NCBI GenBank assembly: GCA_028285525.1
Contig: JANQOZ010000015.1
Coordinates: 51,590 to 115,589 of the forward strand
Direction: 5' to 3'
DNA: 64,000 bases
Origin: Lysobacterales bacterium
GTDB lineage: Bacteria; Pseudomonadota; Gammaproteobacteria; Xanthomonadales; SZUA-38
The notes under the pieces were generated by a model. The model was not told where the DNA came from and searched no databases. It saw nothing but the letters and a program-made list of their open reading frames with translations. Both the position numbers and the translations under genes were made by a program. Within the stretch, counting starts at the first letter, position 1. Each line of letters starts with the position of its first letter. Positions 3,294-60,238 of this stretch are shown piece after piece.

Positions 3294-5315
3294 CTACTCA
3301 AATCCATCGGCGAAAAGCAGGTCTCCTCCTACATCGAAGCCGACGCTTACCAGGTTGGCGTCATTGGCAAAGCCTCCGAGCGCGCCAATCGCGTCTGTGA
3401 TATCCACCTGCGGACCGGCGTTTCGAAATCGCCCATCCCACATGCGCAACGTCAGCTGCGCCGGTGTGCCGGTGAACTCTGGCTCCGGCACAAAGCGCAG
3501 TCGCGCTGATGGCGTTAGAACCAGGGCGCTTGCGTCGCTAACCTGCGGCACGTCCACAAATGCCCCGCCTTCGGAAAACTGCCAGCGCCCCTCGCCCGGG
3601 CTCTCCGGGTTAGCAACGACGGCGGCGCCGGCCAATGCATCCTGGTCTTCGTAGGTGTTCGCCAGTATGTCGGCAAGCGTGGGCAGGTCAGCTGGAGCGA
3701 GAGAAACCGAGCCAGCGCCGACACGATTTGTCCGAGCGCGGGGCGCTGCGTTGCCGAACACGATGTACGCTTCACCAGCGGTTTGTTGCGTATCGCTTCT
3801 GGCGTTTTGGGCGCCAACCAACAGGTCGTCGACTCCATCCTGGTTAATGTCGCCGGCGGCGCTAACCGAATTTCCCGCCCGATCAGAAGTATCGATCCCG
3901 GCCAGCACCAGGCCATCCCGGCCACTCAGTGCCGCCAATTCCAAACGCGCGGGAAAGCTGCCCGGGCGACCAAGCACCACAAATGCGCGCCCCGTTGCGG
4001 GGTCTGTTGCCGAATCGGCATCAGCACCGATTATCAAGTCGCTGAACCCGTCGCCGTTCACATCGCCCGCCAGGTCGACGTCGCCTCCGACACTGTCGCC
4101 AAGAGCCCCAACCAGCTGGAACCCGTTGCTGCCGTCCAGCGTGTCGAGCCGAAGCGACTCGGCCAACGGTTCTCGAGAGCCGAATACCACAAAGCTCACG
4201 CCGGCTACTGGCTGTTCGGCGCCTTTTGCTGCTGCGGGTGCTTCGGAGAAGGGTGAGCCGATCAGAATGTCGTGCAGCCCGTCGGCGTTTACGTCGCCGG
4301 CGTCGCTGACGGCCAATCCGGTTTCAAAAGCACTGCCCGTCAGCGTGATTCCGTTGGTCCCGTCAATGCTGTCCAGATCGAACGTGGCAGGAAACATAGT
4401 GTCGCTGGTGCCGAATACCAGATACACCTTGCCGCCACTTTCAACCCCGTTAGCTGTGGCCGACGGGTCTGAGATGATCAGATCGTCAATACCGTCACCG
4501 TTAAAGTCTCCTGCGCTTCCCAAATCCAGTCCGAGAAATCCCTCGGCGCTGACGTTTGGAATGATGAAGCCGTCTGCACCATCCAGGGCGGTCAGATCGA
4601 TGGTTGGAGGGAAGCCTTGGCTGGAGCCAAACAGAACGAAGACCTGTCCACCACCGGGTGCCGAAGGCGCGGCGATGGCGATATCGTCAAAGCCGTCGTT
4701 GTTGAGATCTCCAACGCCGTTGGCACCTCGCCCCAGGCGAGCAGAATCTGTGACTGGTCCGGACAGCACGAAGCCGTTTGAACCATCCAGCGTCGAGAGG
4801 TCGAAGGCCGCACCGAAGTTTTCGCTGGAACCGAATATCACGTACGCCTCGCCGTTCGATGCTGCGCCGCGGTCAGCGTTCTGCGCTCCAATGACCAGGT
4901 CGGGAAGGCCGTCACCGTTTATGTCCCCTGAGCCGTTCACCCGTCGCCCTAAGAATTCACCATTATTCAGACCTCTCACCGCAAACCCGTTGCTGCCGTC
5001 GAGGAGGGCTGTGTTAGTTGGAAGCGTTCCGCCGGGGGCGGCCCCAAAGATCACGAAGACCGCTCCCGGAGCGTTGAAATCTCCGTCGTCAGAGCCAATC
5101 GCGATATCATCGATCCCATCGCCGTTGAAATCACCGATATCCGTTAGGGCGATACCAAAATTGCTGAATCGAATATCTCGACCCACAACGGTAACGCCGG
5201 TGTCGTTGGACAGGTCTGCCAGCTGGAACAAGCCCTGCGCGAACCCAGGCTTGGGCCCTGCCAGCACAGTCGCAACGACCAGTAGAGGCATGATGGTGCG
5301 TAATGCGAAGGTCAT
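3294..5315 (-). CDS. Secreted FG-GAP repeat protein (seven-bladed integrin-alpha-like propeller) with extra C-terminal domain
   Basis: Signal peptide MTFALRTIMPLLVVATVLAGPKPGFAQ. Seven Ca-binding FG-GAP loops: GDFNGDGIDDIAIG, GDINGDGLPDLVIG, GDLNNDGFDDIAIA, GDFNGDGIDDLIIS, GDVNADGLHDILIG, GDVNGDGFSDLIIG, GDINQDGVDDLLVG. A roughly 150-aa C-terminal domain ends in LLFADGFE. Confidence 0.9.
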   Translation of the reverse strand: MTFALRTIMPLLVVATVLAGPKPGFAQGLFQLADLSNDTGVTVVGRDIRFSNFGIALTDIGDFNGDGIDDIAIGSDDGDFNAPGAVFVIFGAAPGGTLPTNTALLDGSNGFAVRGLNNGEFLGRRVNGSGDINGDGLPDLVIGAQNADRGAASNGEAYVIFGSSENFGAAFDLSTLDGSNGFVLSGPVTDSARLGRGANGVGDLNNDGFDDIAIAAPSAPGGGQVFVLFGSSQGFPPTIDLTALDGADGFIIPNVSAEGFLGLDLGSAGDFNGDGIDDLIISDPSATANGVESGGKVYLVFGTSDTMFPATFDLDSIDGTNGITLTGSAFETGLAVSDAGDVNADGLHDILIGSPFSEAPAAAKGAEQPVAGVSFVVFGSREPLAESLRLDTLDGSNGFQLVGALGDSVGGDVDLAGDVNGDGFSDLIIGADADSATDPATGRAFVVLGRPGSFPARLELAALSGRDGLVLAGIDTSDRAGNSVSAAGDINQDGVDDLLVGAQNARSDTQQTAGEAYIVFGNAAPRARTNRVGAGSVSLAPADLPTLADILANTYEDQDALAGAAVVANPESPGEGRWQFSEGGAFVDVPQVSDASALVLTPSARLRFVPEPEFTGTPAQLTLRMWDGRFRNAGPQVDITDAIGALGGFANDANLVSVGFDVGGDLLFADGFE

Positions 5316-5512: not shown

Positions 5513-6268
5513 ATGGCAGTAGCTGGACGTAAAGAAGTTGAATGTTGCGGGAGAACAGGAAAAGACGCTGTGCTCTTCGATTTGGGCAATACGCTCGTGT
5601 CCTACTATGAACCCGCCAATTTCCTCCCCGTGCTTGACGACTGTATTCGTTCGATCAGTCACGTTTTGCATGGCAATGGAGCTGCGGCGGGTCAGAATGC
5701 TCTGCTTGAAAAAGCAAAGCCGCTGAACCGCGAGCGTGATGACCTTCGGGTTTGGCCTTTGCATGAACGCCTGGCACTGATAGTCGAAGACGAGGAGACC
5801 AGTCGCGACGACTCGTTCATGCGTCAAATGGTCGAGGCGTTTCTTGCTCCTATATTCGAGCTTGGGTCTATCGACCCGCAGGCTTTGGATGTTCTCAGCC
5901 GGTTGCAGGAGCTGGGCTACAAGACCGCGATTGTTTCAAACACTCCCTGGGGGAGCCCAGCAGACCTCTGGCATCAAGAGCTTGACCGCCATGGGCTGCT
6001 GGATGTGGTCGACGCGGTAGTATTCTGTGTTGACGTCGGATGGCGAAAGCCGCATCGGGCGCCCTTCGAAGAGGCGCTGTCGAGTCTCGGGGTCCCGGCA
6101 AGTCGGGCGGTTTTTGTGGGCGACGATCCTGTGTGGGATGTTCAAGGCGCGAAAGGTGTCGGAATCGAGCCTGTGCTGATTCATCGTGCGCAGAAAACTT
6201 CAGACGATGTGCCGTCCATCGCCAAACTGTTGGACCTTCTTGGTCTGTTAAATTCTCCCGGCAATTAG
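5513..6268 (+). CDS. HAD-superfamily hydrolase (subfamily IA-like, variant motif I)
   Basis: Motif I is AVLFDLGNTLV (D-x-G-x-T rather than DxDxT). Motif II is IVSNTPWG. Motif IV region is VFVGDDPVWDVQGAKGVG. Confidence 0.75.
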   Translation: MAVAGRKEVECCGRTGKDAVLFDLGNTLVSYYEPANFLPVLDDCIRSISHVLHGNGAAAGQNALLEKAKPLNRERDDLRVWPLHERLALIVEDEETSRDDSFMRQMVEAFLAPIFELGSIDPQALDVLSRLQELGYKTAIVSNTPWGSPADLWHQELDRHGLLDVVDAVVFCVDVGWRKPHRAPFEEALSSLGVPASRAVFVGDDPVWDVQGAKGVGIEPVLIHRAQKTSDDVPSIAKLLDLLGLLNSPGN

Positions 6269-6350: not shown

Positions 6351-6926
6351 TCAGTCCGAATCCGCGTCATCAAGTGGTCTTGTCAAACTATTTTTCTGGT
6401 CGTTACGAACTAGCATCGGCAAGTTTCGCAACCAAAACTGGCCGTTGTGCTTATCGCGGTGGAGAATAAAGGTACCTCGAGAGCCTGGGACAACTGCGTG
6501 TCTCAAGGACGTAACGGCAAAGCTGGTGCCAACCCTTCCACCGAATCGGAATATTTGAACCGTGTTACCCGTGATTTGACCCTTGAGTAGTTCCTCCAGA
6601 GTAGCTGAGCAAACTGTGTAGATGCTGGTTCTTGCGAAAGGGCCGTTGCTTGTATCGTGGGTTAGGGTCATCCAGGAGGAGCTGCAGTCAGTGACTTCGC
6701 CCTCGAAAGCATAAGCTGCCTCTTCTATAGCTTTCTCGGTCGGATTGAGGTCTGCCATAGACTCGATTTCGTTTGATTGGGCAGCGGTGTTCGCCAGAGC
6801 AAAGACAGGCGCTAGAAGAATTGTGTGCTGAACGATTCGAGCTCTGGTGATTGAACCGCCGTACGGCTCGCGGCCTCCCCGGTCCAATCTGTATATGTTG
6901 GTTCTCTTTGCCCTATGAGCACTCAT
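6351..6926 (-). CDS. Hypothetical secreted protein (orphan operon gene C)
   Basis: 191-aa ORF. Its ATG overlaps the stop of the upstream gene as ATGA (6923-6926). A hydrophobic signal-like stretch HTILLAPVFALANTAAQ is present. I recognised no family motif. The region is lower in GC. Confidence 0.5.
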   Translation of the reverse strand: MSAHRAKRTNIYRLDRGGREPYGGSITRARIVQHTILLAPVFALANTAAQSNEIESMADLNPTEKAIEEAAYAFEGEVTDCSSSWMTLTHDTSNGPFARTSIYTVCSATLEELLKGQITGNTVQIFRFGGRVGTSFAVTSLRHAVVPGSRGTFILHRDKHNGQFWLRNLPMLVRNDQKNSLTRPLDDADSD

Positions 6927-9975: not shown

Positions 9976-10461
9976 GTGAGTCTTATGCGAGTCTCTACTA
10001 AATGGCGCGTACGGCGAATCGCGCTTTGCTTTGTTGGTCCACCTTTTCTTGGAGTGCTGTTTTTCCTGCTGACGCTACTCTTGGAGGGCGAAAAAATCCC
10101 GCTTCTTGAGTTGGTGAGGTTCGTCGTTTTGGGTACCTGGGTTGCTTTCATTTTCGTCTTTATGCAGGCGATGATTTATGCCGGCGTTATGGAGCTTTAC
10201 ATCATCCCGTACGTACGCAGTCGGCTGATGTTTTACTGTCTGAGCGGCATTTTGGGATATCTCGCTGGGTATTCAGTTGAACACTTTCAGTCTTTCAGAT
10301 CGATGACGTTGGTAGGTCTCTTGGTAGGTTTATCACTCGGGCCGGTGATGTTTTGGGCGTCGATAGACGTGAGAGCCATAATTTCTGGGGTCAGAGTAAA
10401 GGGACAGAGTAAACCGACAGCGAATTGCGGCGCGTTCTCACTGGGCTTCGGTCGTCGGTGA
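9976..10461 (+). CDS. Hypothetical 4-TM membrane protein
   Basis: Four hydrophobic segments (ALCFVGPPFLGVLFFLLTLLL, FVVLGTWVAFIFVFMQAMIYAGV, FYCLSGILGYLAGY, LVGLLVGLSLGPVMFW). The likely start is ATG 9985, preceded by AAGGTG. The last 25 codons are encoded by the left REP repeat, so the native C-terminus may have been replaced. Confidence 0.45.
   Translation: MSLMRVSTKWRVRRIALCFVGPPFLGVLFFLLTLLLEGEKIPLLELVRFVVLGTWVAFIFVFMQAMIYAGVMELYIIPYVRSRLMFYCLSGILGYLAGYSVEHFQSFRSMTLVGLLVGLSLGPVMFWASIDVRAIISGVRVKGQSKPTANCGAFSLGFGRR
10387..10413. repeat. REP element, left copy (GGGGTCAGAGTAAAGGGACAGAGTAAA)
   Basis: It is the perfect 27-nt inverted partner of 11156-11182. It contains an internal direct repeat CAGAGTAAA-GGGA-CAGAGTAAA. 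Confidence 0.85.
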
Positions 10462-10501
10462 TTCAGACTGAGTAACCTTAAGGCCGACGTAGGTATTGCT
10501 T

Positions 10502-11146
10502 ATGCCAAGACAACCCCGATTCTGCCCGGCGGGTCTGCCGGTCCATTTGATACAGCGGGGCAACAATCGACAGGTTTTGTTCACGTGCGATTCTGATCTA
10601 GCAGCTTATTCCAATTGGCTGGCGGATGGCGCCGAACGATTTGGCGTTTCGGTTCACGGCTGGGTTTTTATGACAAACCATGTGCACCTGCTGGCGACGC
10701 CTGACGAAGAAGACAGCCTCTCGAGATTGATGCAGTTTCTTGGACGCCTGTATGTGCGCCACTTCAATTACACCTACCAACGCAGTGGTACGCTGTTCGA
10801 AGGACGATTCAAATCTTGTGTTGTACAGGACGATCAATACCTTCTGAGCTGTCTTCGCTATATTGAGCTGAATCCGGTACGAGCAGGGATGGTTTCCGGC
10901 CCTGGTGACTATCTGTGGTCAAGCTTCGGCGCTCATGCTTTTGGCGTGCGACCGCGGATGTGGTCTCCCCACGATCTCTACTTGCAACTAGGATTAGATG
11001 AAAAGCAACGTGCGGGGGCTTGGCGGGCGTTGGTCCGCGATGCCCTGGACGCTGAGGTGCTGGCTAAGATCCGCCGTTGCGCTAACACCGGGTTGGTTTT
11101 GGGTACCGAGGCATTCCGACGACAGGTGGACAGGCTCAGAGAGTAA
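10502..11146 (+). CDS. REP-associated tyrosine transposase (RAYT; IS200/IS605 Y1 transposase superfamily)
   Basis: Sequence MPRQPRFCPAGLPVHLIQRGNNRQVLF... It has the HUH motif in TNHVHLLATP and the Tyr-helix region LRYIELNPVRAGMV, both typical of RAYT/COG1943 proteins. The ORF track starts at TTG 10496; ATG 10502 is more likely. Confidence 0.85.
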   Translation: MPRQPRFCPAGLPVHLIQRGNNRQVLFTCDSDLAAYSNWLADGAERFGVSVHGWVFMTNHVHLLATPDEEDSLSRLMQFLGRLYVRHFNYTYQRSGTLFEGRFKSCVVQDDQYLLSCLRYIELNPVRAGMVSGPGDYLWSSFGAHAFGVRPRMWSPHDLYLQLGLDEKQRAGAWRALVRDALDAEVLAKIRRCANTGLVLGTEAFRRQVDRLRE

Positions 11147-11155
11147 GCCGCTCTG

Positions 11156-11182
11156 TTTACTCTGTCCCTTTACTCTGACCCC
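11156..11182. repeat. REP element, right copy (TTTACTCTGTCCCTTTACTCTGACCCC)
   Basis: Perfect reverse complement of 10387-10413. Confidence 0.85.
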
Positions 11183-11205
11183 AGGAATTCTGACCCCAGG
11201 AATTC
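11176..11205. repeat. 15-bp perfect tandem duplication (TGACCCCAGGAATTC x2) at the outer end of the right REP
   Basis: 11176-11190 is identical to 11191-11205. Each unit holds the last 7 nt of the REP plus 8 nt of flank. Confidence 0.9.
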
Positions 11206-11323
11206 CGAGAGCTGGACAGCGAAGCCAGAGACTCAGCGGGCATACCGGAGCAGCCCCCGCGCTAAAGGTTTACCGCTCCCGGCCGTTAGGAGACGCAGCG
11301 TAGCAATGCGATGACGATCCGCC

Positions 11324-14300
11324 GTGAAACTCCACGCCCTTCTTCTAGCAGCCCTGGCCGCCGCCCTGGTAACCCCTCCGGCTGCCGGCAACACCTTGCC
11401 GCTCCTGGCCGATTCACCGTTTCGGATTTACTCGGTCGCCGAGGGGCTGAACCAGAAGACGGTTCATGCGGTCGTTCAGGACAACGACGGCTTCCTGTGG
11501 ATCGCGACGTTTGGTGGTCTTAACCGCTTCGACGGCCGCACCTTTGAGAGCCTTACGGCCCGCGAGGGGCTGCGCCAGAACCTGATTCAGGCGCTGCGTG
11601 TCGACGCCCAAAACCGGCTCTGGGCTGGCGACGCCGGCGGCGGCCTGACCCTGATTGAGAACGGCAAGGTTGTGCGCACGTTTGAGCCCGACGAAGCATC
11701 GCGTGGCGTGGTCCGGGCGATCATCGACGTCGGGGATACCCTGTACATCGGCTCGCAGCCGGGCGGAATCCGAACCTTGTCCCTGAACGACATGGATAGC
11801 GGGTTTCAGCATCTTGAGAACGCCCCAGACGAGATCTACACCATGGACCTCGCCGGCGACGACACGCTGTACTTGATCAGCCCAACCGGCCTTCAGCGGC
11901 TCACGGTGGAGGGCGGTGCAGTGTTCGAGGACGTCGGCAATAACCTGACGGCCGTTGCTACGGACCGGCAGGGTCGCGTCGCGGTCGGCGACGCCAACGG
12001 TCGTATCGGCTGGCTACGGGGCGATCGCATCGAATGGCTCGACGTCAACTATGAGGATCGGATCTCTGGGCTGGTCCTCGATCGAGGAACGCTGAAATGG
12101 GTCTTTCTCGAGGAGCTCGGTATGTTCCGATTCGGCGATAAGGACCCATCAGAGTTGGGCCTCGCCATCGCCGGCACCGCACAACCGCTGCGGGACCAGG
12201 AAGGCTTGTTCTGGGTCCCAACGCGAAGCGGACTGGCTCGTTACCTCGGTCCGCGTTTCGAACACTACTCGCTGGAGTTGGAAGGCAGAAGTCCGGAGGT
12301 GTTCGCTGTCCGCCCCGGAGTTGGCGACGATTACTGGTTTGGCACCAACTTAGGCCTTTTGTATCTGGACGGCGACGGCAAGTTGATCAACGTCTCTGAC
12401 GAGCTGGGTATCGATCGTCGCGAGGTGCGTGACATCAGAATCACGCGCGATGGCAGTACGTTGTGGTTTGGCCAGGTTCAGGGCGCCGTTCACGGCATCG
12501 ACCCCGTCACTCGAACCTTGCAAAAAACGTTAGCCGATGACACGTCCTTGACCGTTGGGCTGACGCTGGATCACCGCGACCGGCTATGGATCGGCTCATT
12601 CCTGGGCACGCTGACAATGCATGACCCGGAAACCGAAGAGACACGAACGTACACGATTGGCAACAGCGCGAGCGTGTATTCGCTGGACATGGCCGACGAC
12701 AGCTACCTCTGGTTCAGCGCCAATTTTGCGGGCGTTTTTCGCATCGACACGGACGATCCGGACGCCGAGCCGGAGCGGATGGCGGCCGAGGAGCAATTGC
12801 AGCAGGAGTACTACACGCACGTCGTCGCCACCGGCAGCGGCGAAGGCACGGATGTCTGGTTTTCTGGCATCAAAGGCAGCGTGTTCCGGCTACGCGACGG
12901 TGAGCTCAGCAGTGTATTTACGGAGTCGGCCCTGTCCAATGTGACGATGTATTCGATTCAGCCGCTGCCGGACAACAACCTCGTGGTCGCGACGAGTCGC
13001 GGCGCTTACCGCTATGCGCTCGACACCGATACGCTGGAGCGTTACGGCGCGCTGGACGGCTTCGTCGCGCTGGAATCCAAAGTACACGCGATGTACTACG
13101 ACGGCGGCGACGATCTTCTGATCGGGACGAGCAGCGGCCTCACGGTGATGGATCTGACCATACCCTTCGACGGCGTCACGGCACCGGCAGTGCAGATCAC
13201 CGCCCGCAGGGTCGATGGCCTCACGATCAACGGCTCCTCGTTGTTGGACGCCCTCGACTTCGATGAGGTTGTGATCGACTTCACCGCGGTATCGACGCGC
13301 AAGCCCGATGGTATTGAGTACAGCTATCAGCTTGCGGGCCATGACACAGCTTGGAGCGATGCGGCCAAGACCACGTCGATCTCGTACTCCAATCTGCCGC
13401 CCGGCGAATTTACCTTCGGTGTTCGGGCACGCCTTCCCGGCGGTGCATGGAGCTCAGCTGCCAGCTGGCAGTTCACGGTTCCAACGCCGCTGTGGCGCAC
13501 ACCGTGGTTCATCACGGCGGCCGTTCTCGCCACGCTGGCACTGGTCTGGTCAGCCGTCCAGCTGCGGCTCCGCTCGATTGCAAACGCCAACCTCCGGCTC
13601 CGGCAGGAAGTCGCGGAGCGGACCCAATCCATTGAGGCAGGCCGCCGCGAACTCGAGCTGATCAATGAGCAGCTCAGCAGTGAAATCTTAGAGCGAAAGA
13701 AATCCGACGCGCTGCGCGCCGAGGTAGAGGCGCGCTTTCATCAGGCCTACCAGAACTCGCCCATCGGTATGGCGCTGGTCGACACTGACGGCCTGGTTTA
13801 TGACGCGAATCCGCGGATGAAGGCGCTGTTTTGGCCTGAGTCGGACCGCGAAAAGCGCGAGCCGCTGCTCACCGTCGTCAGCGATGAGGATCGCGCCGAA
13901 TTTTCCGATTTTCTTGCGGACTACGCGGCCGACAGGGCGGAAGTGGCCAGTATGGAAGCGGGTTGTCTGGCCCACGACGGCGCGATCCGACGCATCGACT
14001 TCCACCCGTCGGCCGTCCGAAATCAGGACGGCGAATTGCGATACATCGTACTACTCGCGCACGACGTTACCGAGAATCGGGCGATGACCGATCAGCTTGC
14101 GTATCAGGCCCGCTTTGATGAGCTGACGGGGCTCGTCAATCGGCGCGCATTCGCCGAACGCCTGTCAGCGGTGAGCGAGGAAGACAAAGCGAGCGCCTAT
14201 TTGATGTTCCTCGATCTTGATCAGTTCAAGGTCGTCAACGATACGTGCGGGCACTCCGCCGGTGATGAGTTGCTGTGCATGGTCGCCGACGCGCTGCGTG

Positions 14301-15421
14301 CCTGTGTGCGCAAGGCCGACACGGTCGCACGGCTCGGCGGCGACGAATTCGCCATGATCATCGTCGGTTGTTCCGAAGACACTGCGCTGAAGCGGGCCGA
14401 GACCGTCCGGCAGCGCATTCAGGACCTGAAGTTTTTCTGGGAGAACGACGTATTCCGGGTCGGCGCGAGTATCGGCGTCGTGCCGATCGGCGCCGGATCG
14501 CGGGATCTCAATGAGCTACAGCAGTTGGCCGACGCCGCCTGTTACGCCGCTAAAGACGCTGGCCGCAATCGCGTGCACATGGTCACCGGTGCTGAGGATG
14601 AAGTGCATGCGCATCGCGGCGAGATGCGCTGGGTGCAGCGACTCAACCATGCCATTGACAACGAGAACTTCGAGCTGTTCGGCCAGCGCATACTGCCCCT
14701 GGCCGATCACAGCCAGTCAATCGAGCGGATCGAGATTCTGCTGCGCATGCGTGACCCGGTCACCCATCGGCTGATTCCGCCGGGCGCGTTTCTGCCTGCC
14801 GCTGAACGTTACGGTCTGCATGGGCGACTGGACCAATGGGTGGTTGGTCGAGTTATCGATTCGATGGTGGAGCAGCTCACCAGTGAGGTCGAGAACCGCG
14901 AGTTCTGGGTCAACCTCTCTGGCGCGAGTGTCGGCGACCCGACAGTATCGCGCGAACTGATTCGTATGGTCGAAGCGGCAGACTTGCCGCGCGGCAGCCT
15001 GAACTTTGAGATCACCGAAACCGCCGTAATCCGGAAGATCGGCGAGGCCAAGCAGCTCATCGCCGCGCTGCAGGAGATGGGTTGTCGGTTCGCACTGGAT
15101 GACTTTGGCAGTGGGCTGTCGTCCTTCAGCCACCTGAGGCAGCTAAGCGTCGACTGCCTCAAGGTCGACGGTCAGTTCATTCGCGATATCGGCAAAAACC
15201 CAACCGATCGCATCTTTGTAAAATCGATTATCGACATTGCGCACACGCTCGACATGAGCGTGACCACAGAGTTTGTCGAGGACGATGACATCTTAGGAAT
15301 CGTGCAATCGCTGGGCAGCGACTACGCGCAGGGCTTCGGTATTCACCGGCCGGAACCGCTTAGCGCGCTGGTCTCGACAACGACGGAGGTGCGGGTCAGC
15401 GGGTTGAATCAGTCGGCCTGA
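11324..15421 (+). CDS. Periplasmic two-component-regulator-propeller / Y_Y_Y sensor fused to PAS-GGDEF-EAL (c-di-GMP turnover protein)
   Basis: 1365 aa with signal peptide MKLHALLLAALAAALVTPPAAG. The N-terminus has a long beta-propeller repeat region and a Y_Y_Y-like segment (FTFGVRARLPGGAWSSAASWQFTVPTPLW). Then come a TM helix, a coiled coil and a PAS domain. The GGDEF site is RLGGDEFAMII. The EAL domain has EILLRM...FEITE...DDFGSG. Confidence 0.9.
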   Translation: MKLHALLLAALAAALVTPPAAGNTLPLLADSPFRIYSVAEGLNQKTVHAVVQDNDGFLWIATFGGLNRFDGRTFESLTAREGLRQNLIQALRVDAQNRLWAGDAGGGLTLIENGKVVRTFEPDEASRGVVRAIIDVGDTLYIGSQPGGIRTLSLNDMDSGFQHLENAPDEIYTMDLAGDDTLYLISPTGLQRLTVEGGAVFEDVGNNLTAVATDRQGRVAVGDANGRIGWLRGDRIEWLDVNYEDRISGLVLDRGTLKWVFLEELGMFRFGDKDPSELGLAIAGTAQPLRDQEGLFWVPTRSGLARYLGPRFEHYSLELEGRSPEVFAVRPGVGDDYWFGTNLGLLYLDGDGKLINVSDELGIDRREVRDIRITRDGSTLWFGQVQGAVHGIDPVTRTLQKTLADDTSLTVGLTLDHRDRLWIGSFLGTLTMHDPETEETRTYTIGNSASVYSLDMADDSYLWFSANFAGVFRIDTDDPDAEPERMAAEEQLQQEYYTHVVATGSGEGTDVWFSGIKGSVFRLRDGELSSVFTESALSNVTMYSIQPLPDNNLVVATSRGAYRYALDTDTLERYGALDGFVALESKVHAMYYDGGDDLLIGTSSGLTVMDLTIPFDGVTAPAVQITARRVDGLTINGSSLLDALDFDEVVIDFTAVSTRKPDGIEYSYQLAGHDTAWSDAAKTTSISYSNLPPGEFTFGVRARLPGGAWSSAASWQFTVPTPLWRTPWFITAAVLATLALVWSAVQLRLRSIANANLRLRQEVAERTQSIEAGRRELELINEQLSSEILERKKSDALRAEVEARFHQAYQNSPIGMALVDTDGLVYDANPRMKALFWPESDREKREPLLTVVSDEDRAEFSDFLADYAADRAEVASMEAGCLAHDGAIRRIDFHPSAVRNQDGELRYIVLLAHDVTENRAMTDQLAYQARFDELTGLVNRRAFAERLSAVSEEDKASAYLMFLDLDQFKVVNDTCGHSAGDELLCMVADALRACVRKADTVARLGGDEFAMIIVGCSEDTALKRAETVRQRIQDLKFFWENDVFRVGASIGVVPIGAGSRDLNELQQLADAACYAAKDAGRNRVHMVTGAEDEVHAHRGEMRWVQRLNHAIDNENFELFGQRILPLADHSQSIERIEILLRMRDPVTHRLIPPGAFLPAAERYGLHGRLDQWVVGRVIDSMVEQLTSEVENREFWVNLSGASVGDPTVSRELIRMVEAADLPRGSLNFEITETAVIRKIGEAKQLIAALQEMGCRFALDDFGSGLSSFSHLRQLSVDCLKVDGQFIRDIGKNPTDRIFVKSIIDIAHTLDMSVTTEFVEDDDILGIVQSLGSDYAQGFGIHRPEPLSALVSTTTEVRVSGLNQSA

Positions 15422-15471
15422 ATGAGCTGTCACCCATGAAAATCGGCGTCAGTTCTTGCAACGCTGCGTCT

Positions 15472-16692
15472 TTACGCCTTTTCTCCCTCTCGTTTTCTCA
15501 AGTGGCGAGAAGCCAAGCTCATCGCACCGACAGCCACGAGGCAGTATCCGCCTAACCAGTTCATTTGCCGGGGCAGATCGACGCCCCAATCGATCAGCGT
15601 ACCCGTGATGCCCGGTCCAGCAGCCGTTGCCAGCACCATGGCAGACACAATGACGGAGCGGATAGCGCCGAGATTCAGCACGCCATAGATCTCGGGCCAC
15701 AACGCGCCAAGGAGCGTGGATGAAACGCCATAGCTGATGCCGAGCAAAACCATCACCACAAACAGCGACCAGGCCGGGCCGCTGAGCGCCATGGCAAAGC
15801 AGGCGCAGGCCAGGGGCAGCAGGTAGAGCGGAAGGACACGCACCGCACCGATGCGATCGATTACTCCGCCCGTCACGAGCGCCATGCAAACCGTCGTGAT
15901 GGCCATGGGTATCAGTGCGCTCGGAAAGAGCTGGGGCGCCCAGCCGTTCAGGGTTGCGAGATAGTCCTGGTGGTAAAAGATTGTAGTGCCGATAAACGGC
16001 GGGGCCAGCACGCCGATCAACAGCACCCAGAATATCGGGTCACCTAAAACCTCGGCCCGCGTCCAGTTGCGGCCGACGAATCGTGGTTGGGGGTCGTCAG
16101 CGTGCTCATCGCCTGGTGCACGTGGCTTCCGGTAGGCCCAGGTTGCGAGCGGCAGGGCCACCAGCGAAAGAATGCCTGCCGCGGCCAGCCAACCAGCGCG
16201 ATAGCCGAACGCCAGAGACAGGCTCGCAAACGACAACGGCAGGGTGGCTTCGCCCGCCTGGTGGCCCAGCACCACCAGCGAGACGGCGCGTCCCCGGCTG
16301 GCGGAAAACCATCGTCCGGTAGCGGTCAGCGCGATATGGGTCATCATGCCCTGGCCGAGCAGGCGAAGTAGAAAAATGCCTACCGACAGCATCACCACCG
16401 AGTTCGCGAAGCCCGCCAGCACCGCTGCCCCGGCTAAGGAAATGACCACAAGGGCGACCAGCCGGTGCGTCGGCATCACGTCGACAAGGCGACCCACAAA
16501 CGGTAAACAGCAGGCGCTGGCCAGGGTCGCGAGCATGTACAGGCGACCGAACTGACCTTGGCTTAGGGCAAAGGCCTCCTGCCACTCCGCGACCGAAGCC
16601 GAAACAAAGTAGGTTTGCCCGAAGCTTGAGAATGCAGTGAGGAGGAAGCCACCCGCCAGCCAGCGGAAATTACGCTTTGCGAACGCGAGCAT
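15472..16692 (-). CDS. MFS transporter
   Basis: 406 aa with about 12 hydrophobic segments and the typical MFS loop GRLVDVMPTHR. No substrate can be inferred. Confidence 0.8.
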   Translation of the reverse strand: MLAFAKRNFRWLAGGFLLTAFSSFGQTYFVSASVAEWQEAFALSQGQFGRLYMLATLASACCLPFVGRLVDVMPTHRLVALVVISLAGAAVLAGFANSVVMLSVGIFLLRLLGQGMMTHIALTATGRWFSASRGRAVSLVVLGHQAGEATLPLSFASLSLAFGYRAGWLAAAGILSLVALPLATWAYRKPRAPGDEHADDPQPRFVGRNWTRAEVLGDPIFWVLLIGVLAPPFIGTTIFYHQDYLATLNGWAPQLFPSALIPMAITTVCMALVTGGVIDRIGAVRVLPLYLLPLACACFAMALSGPAWSLFVVMVLLGISYGVSSTLLGALWPEIYGVLNLGAIRSVIVSAMVLATAAGPGITGTLIDWGVDLPRQMNWLGGYCLVAVGAMSLASRHLRKREGEKA

Positions 16693-16786
16693 GGCGCGAT
16701 TTTACATGAAGGAGGGGGGCTGACTGCGGACAAAAACCGAGATGATGACGCCTCAAGACCGCCGGTTCGTCACCCGGCGCCGGCTA

Positions 16787-17167
16787 TCAACTACGCCGGA
16801 GCCCGTATTGATCAAGCCGCCAGCGGAGCGTATCCACTCGATCCTGCCCAAAAAACGGTTCACCCCTAACAACCATCGTCGAGACGCCCCAATGTCCGGC
16901 CGCATCCAGCCCAGTGTGGTTGCGCTCGATTTCGTCGAGGTGGTCTCCATGCTCAATCGCGCGCTCCATGGCGTCGAGGTCAAGGCCTGCTGCCGAGCTT
17001 GCTTGATGCATGAGATCGCCCTGATCCCAGTCTTTTGTTCCGCTGAAAATCAGGTGAGAGATTTCCTTGGCAAACGCCAGTCCCTTGCCTTGTCTTTGGG
17101 CCTCCACGCCGAGCTTCGCCAAACGCATGATGAGCGGCTGTTCCGCCGCTACTTCGGTGCGGCCCAT
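16787..17167 (-). pseudogene. DsbA-family / 2-hydroxychromene-2-carboxylate-isomerase-like gene, C-terminal two-thirds only (probable 5'-truncated remnant)
   Basis: The 126-aa ORF ends ...GLDLDAMERAIEHGDHLDEIERNHTGLDAAGHWGVSTMVVRGEPFFGQDRVDTLRWRL, which matches the C-terminal GVP(T)xxVxGExFWGxDRL signature of the family. In frame upstream there is a TAG at 17252-17254 and no other start codon. The N-terminal thioredoxin beta-alpha-beta is therefore missing. It may still be expressed as a short protein. Confidence 0.45.
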
Positions 17168-17287
17168 GAAATCTCTGTCCCCTGGGCATGCCCCTCGATC
17201 CCAGCTTCGGGCGCCATTGGTGTTGGTTGGCTTTATACTCCCCGGTTGCTGCTAGAGCATTCCGGGTATCGCTAAAAGAGGTCTGAT

Positions 17288-18637
17288 TTGTCAAATAGGT
17301 TCTTACCATCTGGTCTTTGCCTATGGCTGATTATTCTTGGCGGGTGCGCCACGATGCGGACGCCGGATGAGGTTGCCCTAGCCCAAGTGGAGGGGAGCAT
17401 TTGGGCGGTTGATTACCGATTAAGCAACCCCGCCAAAGCTCTGGTTTTTGCCCGCACCGACGATGATTCGCGACGCCAACGGTGGCGTTCAGAATCGGTT
17501 GCTATCGAACTCGCCCGTGCCAGCGGTTTCGACTTCATGCGATCGGACACCAGCGGCGCCTTTTCCTCCGCTCGTTTCGTGTTCTCGAGTACGCCGTTTC
17601 CAACGAGTGACTTCCCGCCGTATCAACGATTCAGCGACGGTGGCATGCTGATATACAGCGGTAGGTTTCATGCTTGTCGACATCATGGTCTCGTGTACTC
17701 GGTGGACTGCAAGGGCCCATGGGCAATGAGTGTGACCGCTCCCCCGGGCACACATATTGTAGTGAACGGCCAGGTGTATGAGTCAGAAGCACGTTGGCTA
17801 GACGATCGGTGGGGAAGCCGATTTTACATTGGCCCGCTAAGGCCGGTAACACGGAGCGGCGTCCCGACCGTCATCGACTCCGGGCTGCCAGACCCCATCA
17901 CAAAGCTCCTATTGTCAAAGTTACCTGATGTGCAAGCCGGCTTTTCGCAGAGGTTGTCGGTCGACTTAACACCTTTCCTTTTCGTTTCCTACGATCGCTC
18001 AAGCCCGGTATCGCGCATTTCGGGCAATACGATAAGAAATCAGGTGTTCATTCACTTTGCAGGTCGCTACTGGGATGAGGCCGTTGTCGAGGGCAATGAC
18101 GCTGGTGAGATTCTGTGGCTATTGACCCACGAGCTTGCGCACGTTTTTCAGTTGGGACTTGAGGGTGACGAGGACGCAAGGTGGATTCACGAAGGGTCAG
18201 CTGAAGCTTTCACTTACTTGCTCTTGCAGGCACAGTTTCCCGAGTCTCACGGCTTTTGGGAAAGTAAACGGAAGGACGCCTCGAAAATCTGCGCCGAAGG
18301 TCTAAGCGCAGGCCCTCTGGCAACCGCGGTCGGACACCACCGAGTAAAGGAACACTATGCGTGTGGCCTGCTGATTTTTCTCGCCATCGACCAAAGCCTT
18401 AGGCATCAGCCAGCGCACAGCCAGACGTTGTTTGATTTGTGGCTTTCTTTGGTGAATGACGCCAAGATCTCGCTTACCAACTCACGAGACTTTCTGCGGG
18501 CACTGCAATCCCGACTGCCTGCTGATCTGGTCAGCAAGATTGGTGCAATAATTCAGGAATCGAAGGAAGATCCGGCAGAGGCGTTGCTTCAACTTGATGC
18601 GATGGCGCAGAACATTACTCTGTTACATTCTCAATGA
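17288..18637 (+). CDS. Putative lipoprotein zinc metallopeptidase (gluzincin-like HExxH...E)
   Basis: TTG start preceded by AAGAGG (17276-17281). Lipobox LIILGGC. Zinc-binding motif LTHELAHVFQ with a downstream WIHEGSAEAF, in an M1/M61-like arrangement. The coding sequence is lower in GC. Confidence 0.65.
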   Translation: MSNRFLPSGLCLWLIILGGCATMRTPDEVALAQVEGSIWAVDYRLSNPAKALVFARTDDDSRRQRWRSESVAIELARASGFDFMRSDTSGAFSSARFVFSSTPFPTSDFPPYQRFSDGGMLIYSGRFHACRHHGLVYSVDCKGPWAMSVTAPPGTHIVVNGQVYESEARWLDDRWGSRFYIGPLRPVTRSGVPTVIDSGLPDPITKLLLSKLPDVQAGFSQRLSVDLTPFLFVSYDRSSPVSRISGNTIRNQVFIHFAGRYWDEAVVEGNDAGEILWLLTHELAHVFQLGLEGDEDARWIHEGSAEAFTYLLLQAQFPESHGFWESKRKDASKICAEGLSAGPLATAVGHHRVKEHYACGLLIFLAIDQSLRHQPAHSQTLFDLWLSLVNDAKISLTNSRDFLRALQSRLPADLVSKIGAIIQESKEDPAEALLQLDAMAQNITLLHSQ

Positions 18638-18667
18638 TCAGGTTGTGTCTGTGCACCCGGTCCGAGA

Positions 18668-18737
18668 TTCTGGGGTCAGAGTAAAGGGACAGAGTACGCC
18701 GCTCAGTTTACTCTGTCCCTTTACTCTGACCCCAGAA
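18668..18737. repeat. REPIN (inverted REP doublet; 29-bp perfect arms, 12-nt loop)
   Basis: 18668-18696 (TTCTGGGGTCAGAGTAAAGGGACAGAGTA) is the exact reverse complement of 18709-18737. It is the same sequence as the REPs flanking the RAYT gene. It lies 31 bp after the stop of the peptidase gene. Confidence 0.9.
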
Positions 18738-60170: not shown

Positions 60171-60190
60171 GAAGAACTGTTGATCCAAAG

Positions 60191-60220
60191 AAAAGGCCAG
60201 CCCTCGGGCTGGCCTTTTTT
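60191..60220. terminator. Bidirectional rho-independent terminator between the TBDR and AcnX genes
   Basis: AAAAGGCCAGCCC-TCG-GGGCTGGCCTTTTTT has a perfect 9-bp GC-rich stem flanked by an A-tract and a T-tract. It sits between convergent stops at 60170 and 60239. Confidence 0.85.
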
Positions 60221-60238
60221 GTGGGGAATAGGTTGTGG

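Follow-up and report, generated by a model that had tools for sequence, protein, structure and literature searches.

What kind of element is a Y1/HUH transposase gene that stands between inverted copies of a repeat, when the same repeat recurs elsewhere as a hairpin? We addressed this question for a locus in a 64,000-nucleotide stretch of a Lysobacterales contig (hereafter the window), which a sequence-only reading had taken for a likely active REP/RAYT system. In our judgement the locus is probably a TIRtron: a chromosomal, single-copy TIRYT gene with its cognate terminal inverted repeats (TIRs), accompanied by scattered gene-less TIRs, most of which are inverted doublets forming hairpins of ~30 bp.

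Structure of the inverted repeats

The features of the locus are listed in Table 1. The inverted repeat pair around the gene is 41 nt long and 93% complementary, with a perfect core of 30 nt (CTGGGGTCAGAGTAAAGGGACAGAGTAAAC) that extends to 35 nt with one mismatch and to 41 nt with three; the sequence-only reading had found the pair, while slightly understating it (27 nt perfect, 34 nt with one mismatch). The repeat 25-mer occurs four times in the window, against 0.00 expected from 100 shuffles, with two copies around the gene and two in a doublet. The internal CAGAGTAAA direct repeat that had been proposed is real, each arm being made up of the tandem units GGGGTCAGAGTAAA and GGGACAGAGTAAA. 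The arm starts with GGGGTCAG (10387–10394), which fits the consensus GGGGWSAS, and the second unit (AGGGACAG) fits it at seven of eight positions. GGGGWSAS is given as the consensus of the TIRs that flank TIRYT genes (Di Nocera 2013, PMC3733652; PMC6006769). ‘Stuttered’ outer units or tandem arms, like those of the right TIR, are also present at L067, L118 and L049. A 6-nt direct repeat, GAGAGC, lies just outside the TIR ends (10371–10376 and 11207–11212).

Taken by itself, an arm has no palindromic structure: the folding energy of the left arm is −2.3 kcal/mol (z = 0.14), and an equally good fold was obtained for 102 of 200 shuffled sequences. No GTAG or GT[AG]G tag was found in the arm or at the hairpin foot, the tetranucleotides at the feet of the window doublet being GAGA and AAAT. 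In a set of 190 arms, positions −7 to −4 on the outer side vary, and the outer flanks show no palindromy past the consensus.

The second copy of the gene-flanking repeat reported for the window is indeed a hairpin doublet, with a perfect 29-bp stem and a 12-nt loop, and as single-stranded DNA it folds at −34 kcal/mol (z = −12.5). Its loop (CGCCGCTCAG) matches the right inner flank of the TIRtron (AGCCGCTCTG, 11147–11156) over 10 nt, so the doublet looks like a TIRtron from which the gene has been deleted. It lies ~30 nt past a stop codon, between two co-directional ORFs, and no U-tract terminator signature was seen at the hairpins. We found no orthologous empty site for this doublet, because the adjoining 449-aa ORF has no close homologue except in the source.

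Table 1. Coordinates of the probable TIRtron and the TIR doublet within the window
Feature	Position	Strand	Details
Left TIR	10377..10417	+	perfect core 10385–10414; units GGGGTCAGAGTAAA 10387–10400, GGGACAGAGTAAA 10401–10413
Spacer, left TIR to start codon	10418..10501	+	poorly conserved among orthologous TIRtrons
TIRYT gene, 214-aa Y1/HUH tyrosine transposase-like protein	10502..11146	+	H60/H62 HUH motif, catalytic Tyr Y120, then N124
Right TIR	11152..11192	-	perfect core 11155–11184; starts 8 nt past stop codon
Tandem duplication, outermost 15 nt of right TIR	11174..11203	+	TCTGACCCCAGGAAT x2
TIR doublet, non-autonomous hairpin element	18668..18737	.	arms 18668–18696, 18709–18737; loop 18697–18708

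The transposase and its family

The open reading frame of the transposase is intact, with an alternative TTG start at 10496. The product scores 40 bits against Pfam Y1_Tnp (E = 4.9e-10; cutoff 23 bits), and H60-V-H62 and Y120 (within YIELNPVRAG) are invariant among 36 homologues, in agreement with the earlier view of the product as a HUH/Y1 transposase, intact and belonging to the RAYT superfamily in the broad sense. An AlphaFold2 model based on 36 homologues had a pLDDT of 61.8, and this low-confidence model has three helices at residues 167–213; its top Foldseek matches are all Y1 transposases and all weak (E > 0.03). The C-terminal ~65 residues, helical in this pLDDT-61.8 model, can be aligned with the C-termini of published TIRYTs. 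A search for a C-terminal HTH gave no Pfam match for the last 74 aa at E ≤ 0.1, and a PDB profile search with the C-terminal alignment returned nothing meaningful. Around the gene, a consensus scan found no sigma-70 promoter or terminator signal, and Rfam gave no matches in the window. The exact window protein, with either start codon, was absent from the records.

The best NCBIfam family for the protein is REP_Tyr_transpos (NF047646), yet the score of 62.3 bits lies below the 80-bit cutoff; the sole PDB sequence match is TnpA_REP (4ER8). By blastp, the protein is 39–52% identical over essentially its full length (E = 1e-47 to 1e-84) to ten published TIRYTs (mpc_0880, sse_3670, pfs_148A, psu_2716, swd_1484, hch_1378, cps_4446, sml_1152, sml_4509 and tkm_1558), while TIRYTs at a greater distance have lower scores. 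Identity to canonical RAYTs (eco b0228, pfs_3939, pfs_4255, ppf_5083, sml_1101 and sml_2816) is 22–32% over ~85–145 residues (E = 1e-5 to 1e-11), both comparisons being purely pairwise and made with the sequences of Additional file 5 of PMC3733652. At 214 aa, the protein is also extended at its C-terminus relative to the RAYTs of 148–165 aa. By sequence, the product is a TIRYT-type HUH/Y1 enzyme with its reading frame intact.

Classical REPs are 20–50-nt palindromes that follow GTAG and occur in association with RAYTs of Group 2 or Group 3 (PMC8266576; PMC5581495). The non-palindromic arm, the lack of GTAG, the GGGGWSAS match, the TIRYT-like protein and the sub-cutoff RAYT score together place this locus, as far as its sequence features go, in the already described but little-studied TIRtron/TIRYT class, and not among classical REP/RAYT systems. 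In the published cross-mapping, 20 of 26 TIRYTs and 291 of 292 Group 1 sequences fall into TnpA_Y1 subclass 2.1, through which we infer that the protein belongs to RAYT Group 1, equivalent to subclass 2.1.

Conservation of arms, spacers and protein

Mean identities from pairwise comparison of eight TIRtrons were 0.97 (TIRs), 0.69 (coding sequence), 0.44 (third codon positions) and 0.40 (inner spacer). Conservation of the TIRs therefore far exceeds that of the gene they flank, and the difference between coding sequence and third positions, with the invariant catalytic residues, is evident purifying selection on the transposase. In a protein-ascertained sample of 86 loci (85 fetched via the protein, plus the window), the TIR type is the same on both sides in all 45 typed loci (A/A 12, B/B 9, C/C 24). 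TIR sequence type co-varies with protein lineage, the types largely tracking bands of protein identity with an overlap at ~63–66%, and the same TIR is kept across proteins that have diverged to ~64% identity. The description of the repeat as lineage-specific holds for the inner arm unit, which is clade-specific, but not for the outer unit GGGGTCAGAGTAAA, which in many metagenomes flanks homologues down to 52% identity.

The sequence between paired arms shows no such conservation. For 22 doublet spacers of at least 22 nt, the mean local alignment score was 6.41, versus 6.12 for shuffled spacers and 6.47 within the same genome; long spacers are thus unrelated between copies, even within a genome and at one orthologous atp-operon site. 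The loops of the short-loop doublets of one MAG are related. Inner stem positions 4–5 vary, yet 63% and 57% of doublets have complementary bases there (controls: 25% and 35%), while changes inside the 22-mer (three symmetric versus 25 in one arm) are uninformative because the loci were selected for an exact arm.

Dispersal, copy number and genomic context

At least 34 species-level assemblies, from Wenzhouxiangellaceae and allies, contain the exact 22-mer, chiefly in hairpin doublets, so the expected dispersal of the repeat beyond the window as inverted doublets was confirmed in related genomes. In 115 sequence blocks from these assemblies and the window we counted at least 72 hairpin doublets (arms no more than 120 nt apart, up to four mismatches allowed), at least eight gene-sized pairs and at least 108 unpaired arms; pairs of exact 22-mers on opposite strands numbered 67 among the matches listed. 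Gene-less TIR copies run to tens per genome, exact arms numbering at least 39 for MAG MO_188.B40 and no fewer than 35 for Elongatibacter sediminis, and orthologous sites of doublets are filled in some genomes and empty in others. A doublet with identical arms lies between atpA and atpG in three species and another between atpH and atpA in a fourth, and E. sediminis has three doublets within an 8-kb block containing the atp operon.

A single gene copy, as had been suggested, was also what the records showed for the two related genomes checked, with one exact copy apiece: OZ244212.1 (a complete 5.0-Mb chromosome) and the isolate E. sediminis CH-27. The repeat is thus found elsewhere, and multiple identical gene copies were not seen. 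Homologues occur in 21 of 72,556 plasmid records, all at less than 60% identity, with two or three homologues on a few plasmids. Viral contigs contained neither homologues nor the 22-mer; a 15-mer gave 52 matches in them, each single, which we judged to be within the range of chance.

The placement of the repeats at the edges of lower-GC accessory DNA was partly borne out. GC content is 0.51–0.55 at 5–11 kb and 0.52–0.56 at 17–20 kb, versus ~0.60 elsewhere in the window, most ORFs in the lower-GC stretches lack a Pfam match, as do those upstream of the gene, and nothing corresponding to the left flank is found in the closest relative. The neighbouring ORFs that have a Pfam assignment are GGDEF-EAL and MFS. 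In the closest relative, which is ~90% identical, the gene adjoins the same GGDEF-EAL gene, homology begins and ends at the outer TIR ends, and an indel of 1754 bp lies directly beside the right TIR. No flanking ORF is common to ten orthologous TIRtrons of different species. Given the synteny break at the TIR ends and the unshared flanks, the gene-plus-TIR unit itself could move.

Alternative explanations

In a canonical REP/RAYT system (a REPIN-RAYT or REPtron of Group 2 or 3), the arms would be REPs and the doublets REPINs copied as units. This would account for a single-copy Y1/HUH gene between inverted copies of a dispersed repeat, for the prevalence of hairpin-forming inverted doublets, and for TnpA_REP and REP_Tyr_transpos being the best matches in PDB and NCBIfam, respectively. 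The classical REP reading was nevertheless rejected on the folding of the single arm, the missing GTAG or GT[AG]G at the hairpin foot, the NCBIfam cutoff and the pairwise comparisons, in which similarity to RAYTs of E. coli, Pseudomonas and Stenotrophomonas is of partial length and that to TIRYTs of full length. The C-terminal extension also counts against it, and the long doublet spacers are unconserved, so the doublets are not one replicating REPIN population. We therefore hold a REP/RAYT identity, as put forward in the sequence-only reading, to be very improbable. An ordinary autonomous insertion sequence, in which a 0.8-kb TIR–gene–TIR unit transposes whole and the doublets are short-lived MITEs, would explain why the unit is bounded by TIRs, why homology with the relative stops at their outer ends (with the unrelated left flank and the indel at the right TIR), why orthologous TIRtrons share no flanking ORF, and why the window doublet resembles an internal-deletion derivative; the GAGAGC repeat and the few plasmids with two or three homologues point the same way. 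Each of the two genomes tested, one a closed chromosome, has only one exact copy on record, however, identical gene copies were not seen anywhere we looked, and the closest relative has the same GGDEF-EAL neighbour. The persistence of one TIR across proteins down to ~64% identity and at least 34 species is also unlike the turnover of insertion sequences and MITEs. The GAGAGC repeat is absent in the relative and at the doublet and has a chance expectation of roughly 2%. Y1/HUH transposition (IS200/IS605), moreover, is not known to make target duplications. On balance, an ordinary insertion sequence is unlikely.

The hairpins might instead have been exapted by the host as mRNA 3′-end stabilisers, attenuators or terminators in operons, the transposase being irrelevant or historical. 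The doublets in the atp operons of four species and the three in the E. sediminis block are what this would lead one to expect, as are the very high stability of the hairpins and the position of the window doublet shortly past a stop codon between co-directional ORFs. Yet structural selection alone would not fix ~28 nt across species while the spacer is randomised, TIR type follows protein lineage, the transposase keeps all its catalytic residues under purifying selection, and the hairpins lack a U-tract terminator signature. As a full account exaptation is quite unlikely, but it is compatible with the TIRtron explanation and does not exclude it.

Proposed mechanism and significance

For the TIRtron, a mechanism can be outlined with IS200/IS605 TnpA and E. 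coli TnpA_REP as models. The enzyme may recognise the GGGGTCAGAGTAAA units, two per arm, either on the single-stranded hairpin of paired arms or on duplex DNA via its C-terminal helical region. Tyr120 and an HUH-bound metal would cut one strand near the outer edge and then rejoin it; TIR copies would be created, moved or homogenised in trans, and the gene itself would stay put. Some copies, for example those within the atp operon, probably persist because the host benefits from the transcribed hairpin or is not harmed by it. The system may be ‘active’, as had been proposed. The unrelated long spacers do not sit well with simple copy-and-paste of a fixed doublet.

Unrelated DNA between paired arms would point to insertion, replacement or homogenisation at the level of the arm and not to copying of a fixed doublet. 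We tentatively raise the idea, possible though rather doubtful, that a Group 1 RAYT (TIRYT) sustains, across a whole bacterial family, hairpin-forming repeats that are long-lived and passed on mainly by vertical descent, the conserved and maintained unit being the individual ~30-nt arm. If true, arm-level maintenance by a Group 1 RAYT would differ from the REPIN mode, and it would also fit the TIR ends as breakpoints of adjacent rearrangements.

TIRYTs, or Group 1 RAYTs, are the most populous group of RAYTs and rank second in size among the TnpA_Y1 subclasses; we found no experimental study of them in the literature searched, and review-level statements describe Group 1 RAYTs as not accompanied by a population of repeats. 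This locus and its relatives offer a clean, sequence-defined test system, with an intact enzyme, a short two-unit cognate site, three naturally co-varying enzyme/TIR pairs and a cultured host, E. sediminis CH-27, that has dozens of copies, several of them within the atp operon. Such a system could show how the TIRYT branch of HUH enzymes recognises DNA and whether the repeats are really mobilised. For annotation, the gene should be labelled neither as a REP/RAYT system nor as an insertion sequence. The doublets also matter for short-read assembly: one public contig (L117) terminates within a doublet.

Comparison with known systems

Like IS200/IS605 elements, the locus encodes a Y1/HUH enzyme. 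The ends of those elements are subterminal imperfect hairpins on one strand, without TIRs, whereas here there are TIRs and the arm forms no hairpin; those elements are multi-copy and often accompanied by tnpB, whereas this gene is single-copy with unrelated Pfam-assigned neighbours. The window doublet resembles IS-derived MITEs in looking like an internal-deletion derivative of a gene-carrying unit, but MITEs share internal sequence and turn over quickly. With the REPIN-RAYT systems or REPtrons of Groups 2 and 3 (E. coli TnpA_REP, 4ER8; P. fluorescens SBW25), the locus shares the catalytic fold and motifs, a single-copy gene with inverted copies of a dispersed repeat, hairpin doublets and long persistence in a bacterial lineage. 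It differs in the missing GTAG tag, the non-palindromic units and the low, partial-length protein identity. As in a REPIN (Bertels & Rainey 2011), two inverted units form a hairpin, here with a perfect 29-bp stem; unlike REPINs, the doublet copies have no common long spacer and hence do not form one ‘master sequence’ population.

RAYT Group 1 (Bertels, Gallie & Rainey 2017) corresponds to TnpA_Y1 subclass 2.1 (Quentin et al. 2018), and the present gene resembles its members in being chromosomal, single-copy and seldom found on plasmids. In the literature, Group 1 is not associated with REPINs, its flanking 16-mers occur ~12 times, and no REP-like sequence is found near subclass 2.1 genes, whereas here the flanking 22-mer occurs at least 35–39 times per genome, mostly in hairpin doublets. 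Subclass 2.1 proteins are reported to have a C-terminal domain like Bac_DnaA_C, HTH_23 or HTH_28; here the last 74 aa gave no Pfam match at E ≤ 0.1, and the region aligns with the C-termini of published TIRYTs.

TIRtrons and TIRYTs were described by Di Nocera, De Gregorio & Rocco (2013, BMC Genomics 14:522; PMC3733652), with examples in S. maltophilia K279a (ORFs 1152 and 4509), P. fluorescens SBW25 (148A) and Shewanella sediminis (3670). They share with this locus a RAYT-like Y1/HUH gene with long TIRs in place of GTAG-tagged REPs, GGGGWSAS in the TIR, a full-length protein similarity that includes the C-terminal region, and TIRs that form moderately abundant dispersed families, occurring as singles, dimers or clusters. 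Relative to that description, as given in the text of the paper, this family differs in that the arm is a tandem duplication of a GGGGWSAS-type unit, that doublets at orthologous sites have unrelated spacers, and that the family, traced through at least 34 species-level genomes, has three TIR types co-varying with the protein.

Identity of the locus

A transposase gene between inverted repeats, as the sequence-only reading had proposed, was confirmed by the repeats themselves, the single ORF that they enclose, a match of its protein to Pfam Y1_Tnp above the cutoff, and the invariance of H60 and H62 (HUH), the catalytic Y120 and N124 across 36 homologues. The terminal inverted repeat (TIR, each copy being an arm) opens with GGGGTCAG, and each arm comprises two tandem units, GGGGTCAGAGTAAA and GGGACAGAGTAAA. 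The window contains four copies of the 25-mer reported in that reading; 100 shuffles gave none. Feature coordinates are reported in the table.

Features of the TIRtron, the doublet and neighbouring sequence in the window
Feature	Position	Description
TIRs	10377-10417 / 11152-11192	Inverted pair, 41 nt, 93% complementary
Perfect TIR core	10385-10414 / 11155-11184	30 nt, CTGGGGTCAGAGTAAAGGGACAGAGTAAAC; from sequence
TIRYT ORF	10502-11146	214 aa; sole ORF between TIRs; mechanical ORF start is the upstream TTG at 10496
Stutter, 15-nt scale	11174-11203	Outermost TIR part in tandem, TCTGACCCCAGGAAT x2
GAGAGC direct repeat	10371-10376 / 11207-11212	6 nt, just beyond both TIRtron ends; absent around the doublet and in the relative; chance ~2% (rough estimate); probably coincidence
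161-aa ORF	9976-10461	Runs through left TIR; no Pfam match; last 26 residues from TIRtron DNA, unchanged in the TIRtron of the relative; either truncation/extension of a gene by the element or a spurious ORF
Doublet	18668-18737	Perfect 29-bp hairpin, 12-nt loop; between two co-directional ORFs
Unrelated hairpin	60185-60224	Imperfect, 19 bp, CCAAAGAAAAGGCCAGCCC / GGGCTGGCCTTTTTTGTGG, T-run inside 3' arm; resembles an ordinary intrinsic terminator

TIRtrons and their TIRYTs are RAYT-like genes with long flanking TIRs that have GGGGWSAS in common and are not REPs (PMC6006769, PMC3733652), and TIRYTs for the most part fall into TnpA_Y1 subclass 2.1, equivalent to RAYT Group 1 of Bertels (PMC6006769). 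We compared the window protein with the reference proteins that Di Nocera et al. published in 2013 (PMC3733652, Additional file 5). Ten TIRYTs aligned over approximately the full length, with identities of 39-52% and E-values between 1e-47 and 1e-84, including mpc_0880 (52%), sse_3670 (48%), P. fluorescens 148A (47%), and S. maltophilia 1152 (46%) and 4509 (39%), whereas canonical RAYTs from E. coli, Pseudomonas and Stenotrophomonas showed 22-32% identity over only ~85-145 residues. The C-terminal 65 residues of the window protein also align with the TIRYTs, and an HTH was not demonstrable within them using Pfam, the AlphaFold model or a PDB profile search. Judged by sequence comparison, the window locus is a TIRtron encoding a TIRYT, adding a member to the TIRtrons with moderately abundant TIR families known since 2013 (PMC3733652).

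Contrasts with classical REP systems and multi-copy ISs

The repeats had also been read as REPs, and this part of the earlier reading did not hold. Classical REPs are 20-50-nt palindromes with GTAG in front (PMC8266576, PMC5581495). On folding, a single arm displayed no structure (-2.3 kcal/mol, z = 0.14), and only paired arms fold (-34 kcal/mol, z = -12.5). No GTAG was found in or beside the arm, TIRYT scored 62.3 bits against NCBIfam REP_Tyr_transpos (cutoff 80), and the match of E. coli TnpA_REP (4ER8) to TIRYT was weak (E = 0.004). A classical REP identity was rejected on the unstructured arm, the missing GTAG, the score below cutoff and the pairwise protein comparisons.

Nor does the TIRYT gene behave like a multi-copy IS, because a single exact copy of the respective TIRYT is on record in each of two genomes, OZ244212.1 (a closed 5.0-Mb chromosome) and Elongatibacter sediminis, and the TIRtron adjoins the same GGDEF-EAL gene in the closest relative, GCA_039033415.1 (~90% nucleotide identity). 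Its borders are nonetheless rearrangement points. Homology with the relative spans window 10380 to 11183, from the outer end of one TIR to that of the other. On the left the relative has unrelated sequence with integrase and IS3-type genes, and on the right 1754 bp carrying two genes (one for a protein of 132 aa, the other for a TPR/TonB_C protein) separates its TIR from the GGDEF-EAL gene. More distant orthologues have no flanking ORFs in common, and TIRYT homologues are rare on plasmids.

A second indel is located at window 15428-15483, where the window has 56 bp and the relative 2.8 kb with HAMP/GAF and protein-kinase genes. The relative also contains another GGGGTCAG-containing stretch (TTGGGGTCAGGAGACCTTTGGGGTCTC, block L115 12288-12320), ~140 nt before window homology resumes, which may be a remnant of a further TIR type.

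The repeat family and its gene-less copies

Scanning for the 22-mer GGTCAGAGTAAAGGGACAGAGT in one genome per species yielded at least 114 sequence blocks (numbered with the prefix L) from at least 34 assemblies. Among the matches listed, carriers were Wenzhouxiangellaceae / 'Lysobacterales' MAGs, the isolate E. sediminis CH-27 and two Azotimanducaceae genomes; the repeat was absent from viral contigs. The blocks listed and the window contain at least 72 hairpin doublets (two inverted arms with no gene), at least 8 gene-sized pairs and at least 108 unpaired arms; exact arms number at least 39 for MAG MO_188.B40 and at least 35 for E. sediminis. T-GGGGTCAGAGTAAAGGGACAGAGT-AAA is the unit conserved over 190 arms, 84% of which also have A at position -8.

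The repeat is also present in a MAG labelled Rhodothermales (L045 / L048). In one contig so labelled, 517 nt match a gammaproteobacterial MAG (L082) at 98.8% identity, which suggests binning contamination and not inter-phylum transfer. Assemblies seem to break at the repeat, as the Logan short-read contig L117 (window 10861-18696) begins inside the TIRYT gene and stops at the final base of the doublet's left arm.

The window doublet is laid out as left TIR, CGCCGCTCAG, right TIR. It looks like a TIRtron minus its gene, because its loop resembles the right inner flank of the TIRtron (AGCCGCTCTG in the window, ACCACTCAG in the relative). Possible endpoints of the deletion are ACAGAGTA, within the left TIR, and a sequence like it in the gene's last codons, CAGAGAGTA. 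Doublet loops elsewhere range from 3 to 78 nt. The two positions past AAA/TTT are variable yet complementary in 63% and 57% (controls, 25% and 35%). Unlike those of REPINs or MITEs, the long spacers of TIR doublets are unrelated between copies, also within one genome.

The atpA-atpG site contains a doublet in three species (L022 2923-3009, L001 2135-2220 and L098 3067-3187), with identical arms and wholly different spacers of 42-77 nt. A fourth species (L067, ~3927-4118) lacks a doublet at this site and has one between atpH and atpA (5637-5695) instead. E. sediminis has three doublets within an 8-kb block containing the atp operon. Host retention of transcribed hairpins in this operon is plausible, and compatible with the enzyme mechanism proposed below.

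Co-variation of TIR and protein

Mean pairwise identity across eight TIRtrons was 0.97 for the TIRs, 0.69 for the CDS, 0.44 for third codon positions, 0.40 for the inner spacer and 0.18 for the outer flanks. Since these eight were ascertained by the repeat, we drew a protein-ascertained sample (n = 86), comprising 80 metagenome loci (52-91% identity), 5 protein-fetched loci and the window. Three TIR types were distinguished: type A (...AAAGGGACAGAGT), with proteins ~64-100% identical to the window protein, type B (...AAGTGCCAGAGT; 63-66%) and type C (a single unit, GGGGTCAGAGTAAAAAC; 52-64%), all retaining the outer unit GGGGTCAGAGTAAA. The type was equal on both sides in 45 of the 45 loci typable at both, with none discordant. 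This two-sided concordance is the strongest evidence in this analysis that the TIR is the enzyme's cognate site.

In MAG JANOGQ, the arms of the doublet at L001 447-532 share two substitutions (GGGAC to GTGCC, giving a type-B TIR), and this doublet occurs alongside type-A doublets, so this genome may hold two TIR families. Block L007 contains a full-length, more distant TIRYT (3482-4117; 58% identity), the right end of which retains the outer unit only. Approximately 2.3 kb away on the same MAG contig (6408-6551), a 34-residue C-terminal TIRYT fragment beside an exact type-A arm is apparently a decayed second TIRtron.

Proposed mechanism and comparison with known systems

By analogy with IS200/IS605 TnpA and TnpA_REP, TIRYT would bind the repeated units, either on a hairpin formed in ssDNA or on duplex DNA, with one strand then cut near the outer edge by Y120 and the HUH-bound metal and re-ligated. 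Arms could in this way be generated, moved or homogenised in trans. Tandem duplication of the outermost TIR part is recurrent: L067 5590-5740 reads GGGGTCAGCGAGTTCC GGGGTCAATTCC GGGGTCAGAG..., L118 has whole arms at 32-nt spacing (4931-4984 and 6685-6738), and L049 (~2127-2190) is also duplicated. These stuttered outer units may be a footprint of repeated end processing, being consistent with it, not proof of it.

Group 1 RAYTs have been described as lacking a repeat population (PMC5581495), and subclass 2.1 genes as lacking nearby REP-like sequences (PMC6006769). One TIR persisting family-wide, three co-varying enzyme/TIR types and unrelated spacers go beyond this literature, and fit awkwardly with both descriptions.
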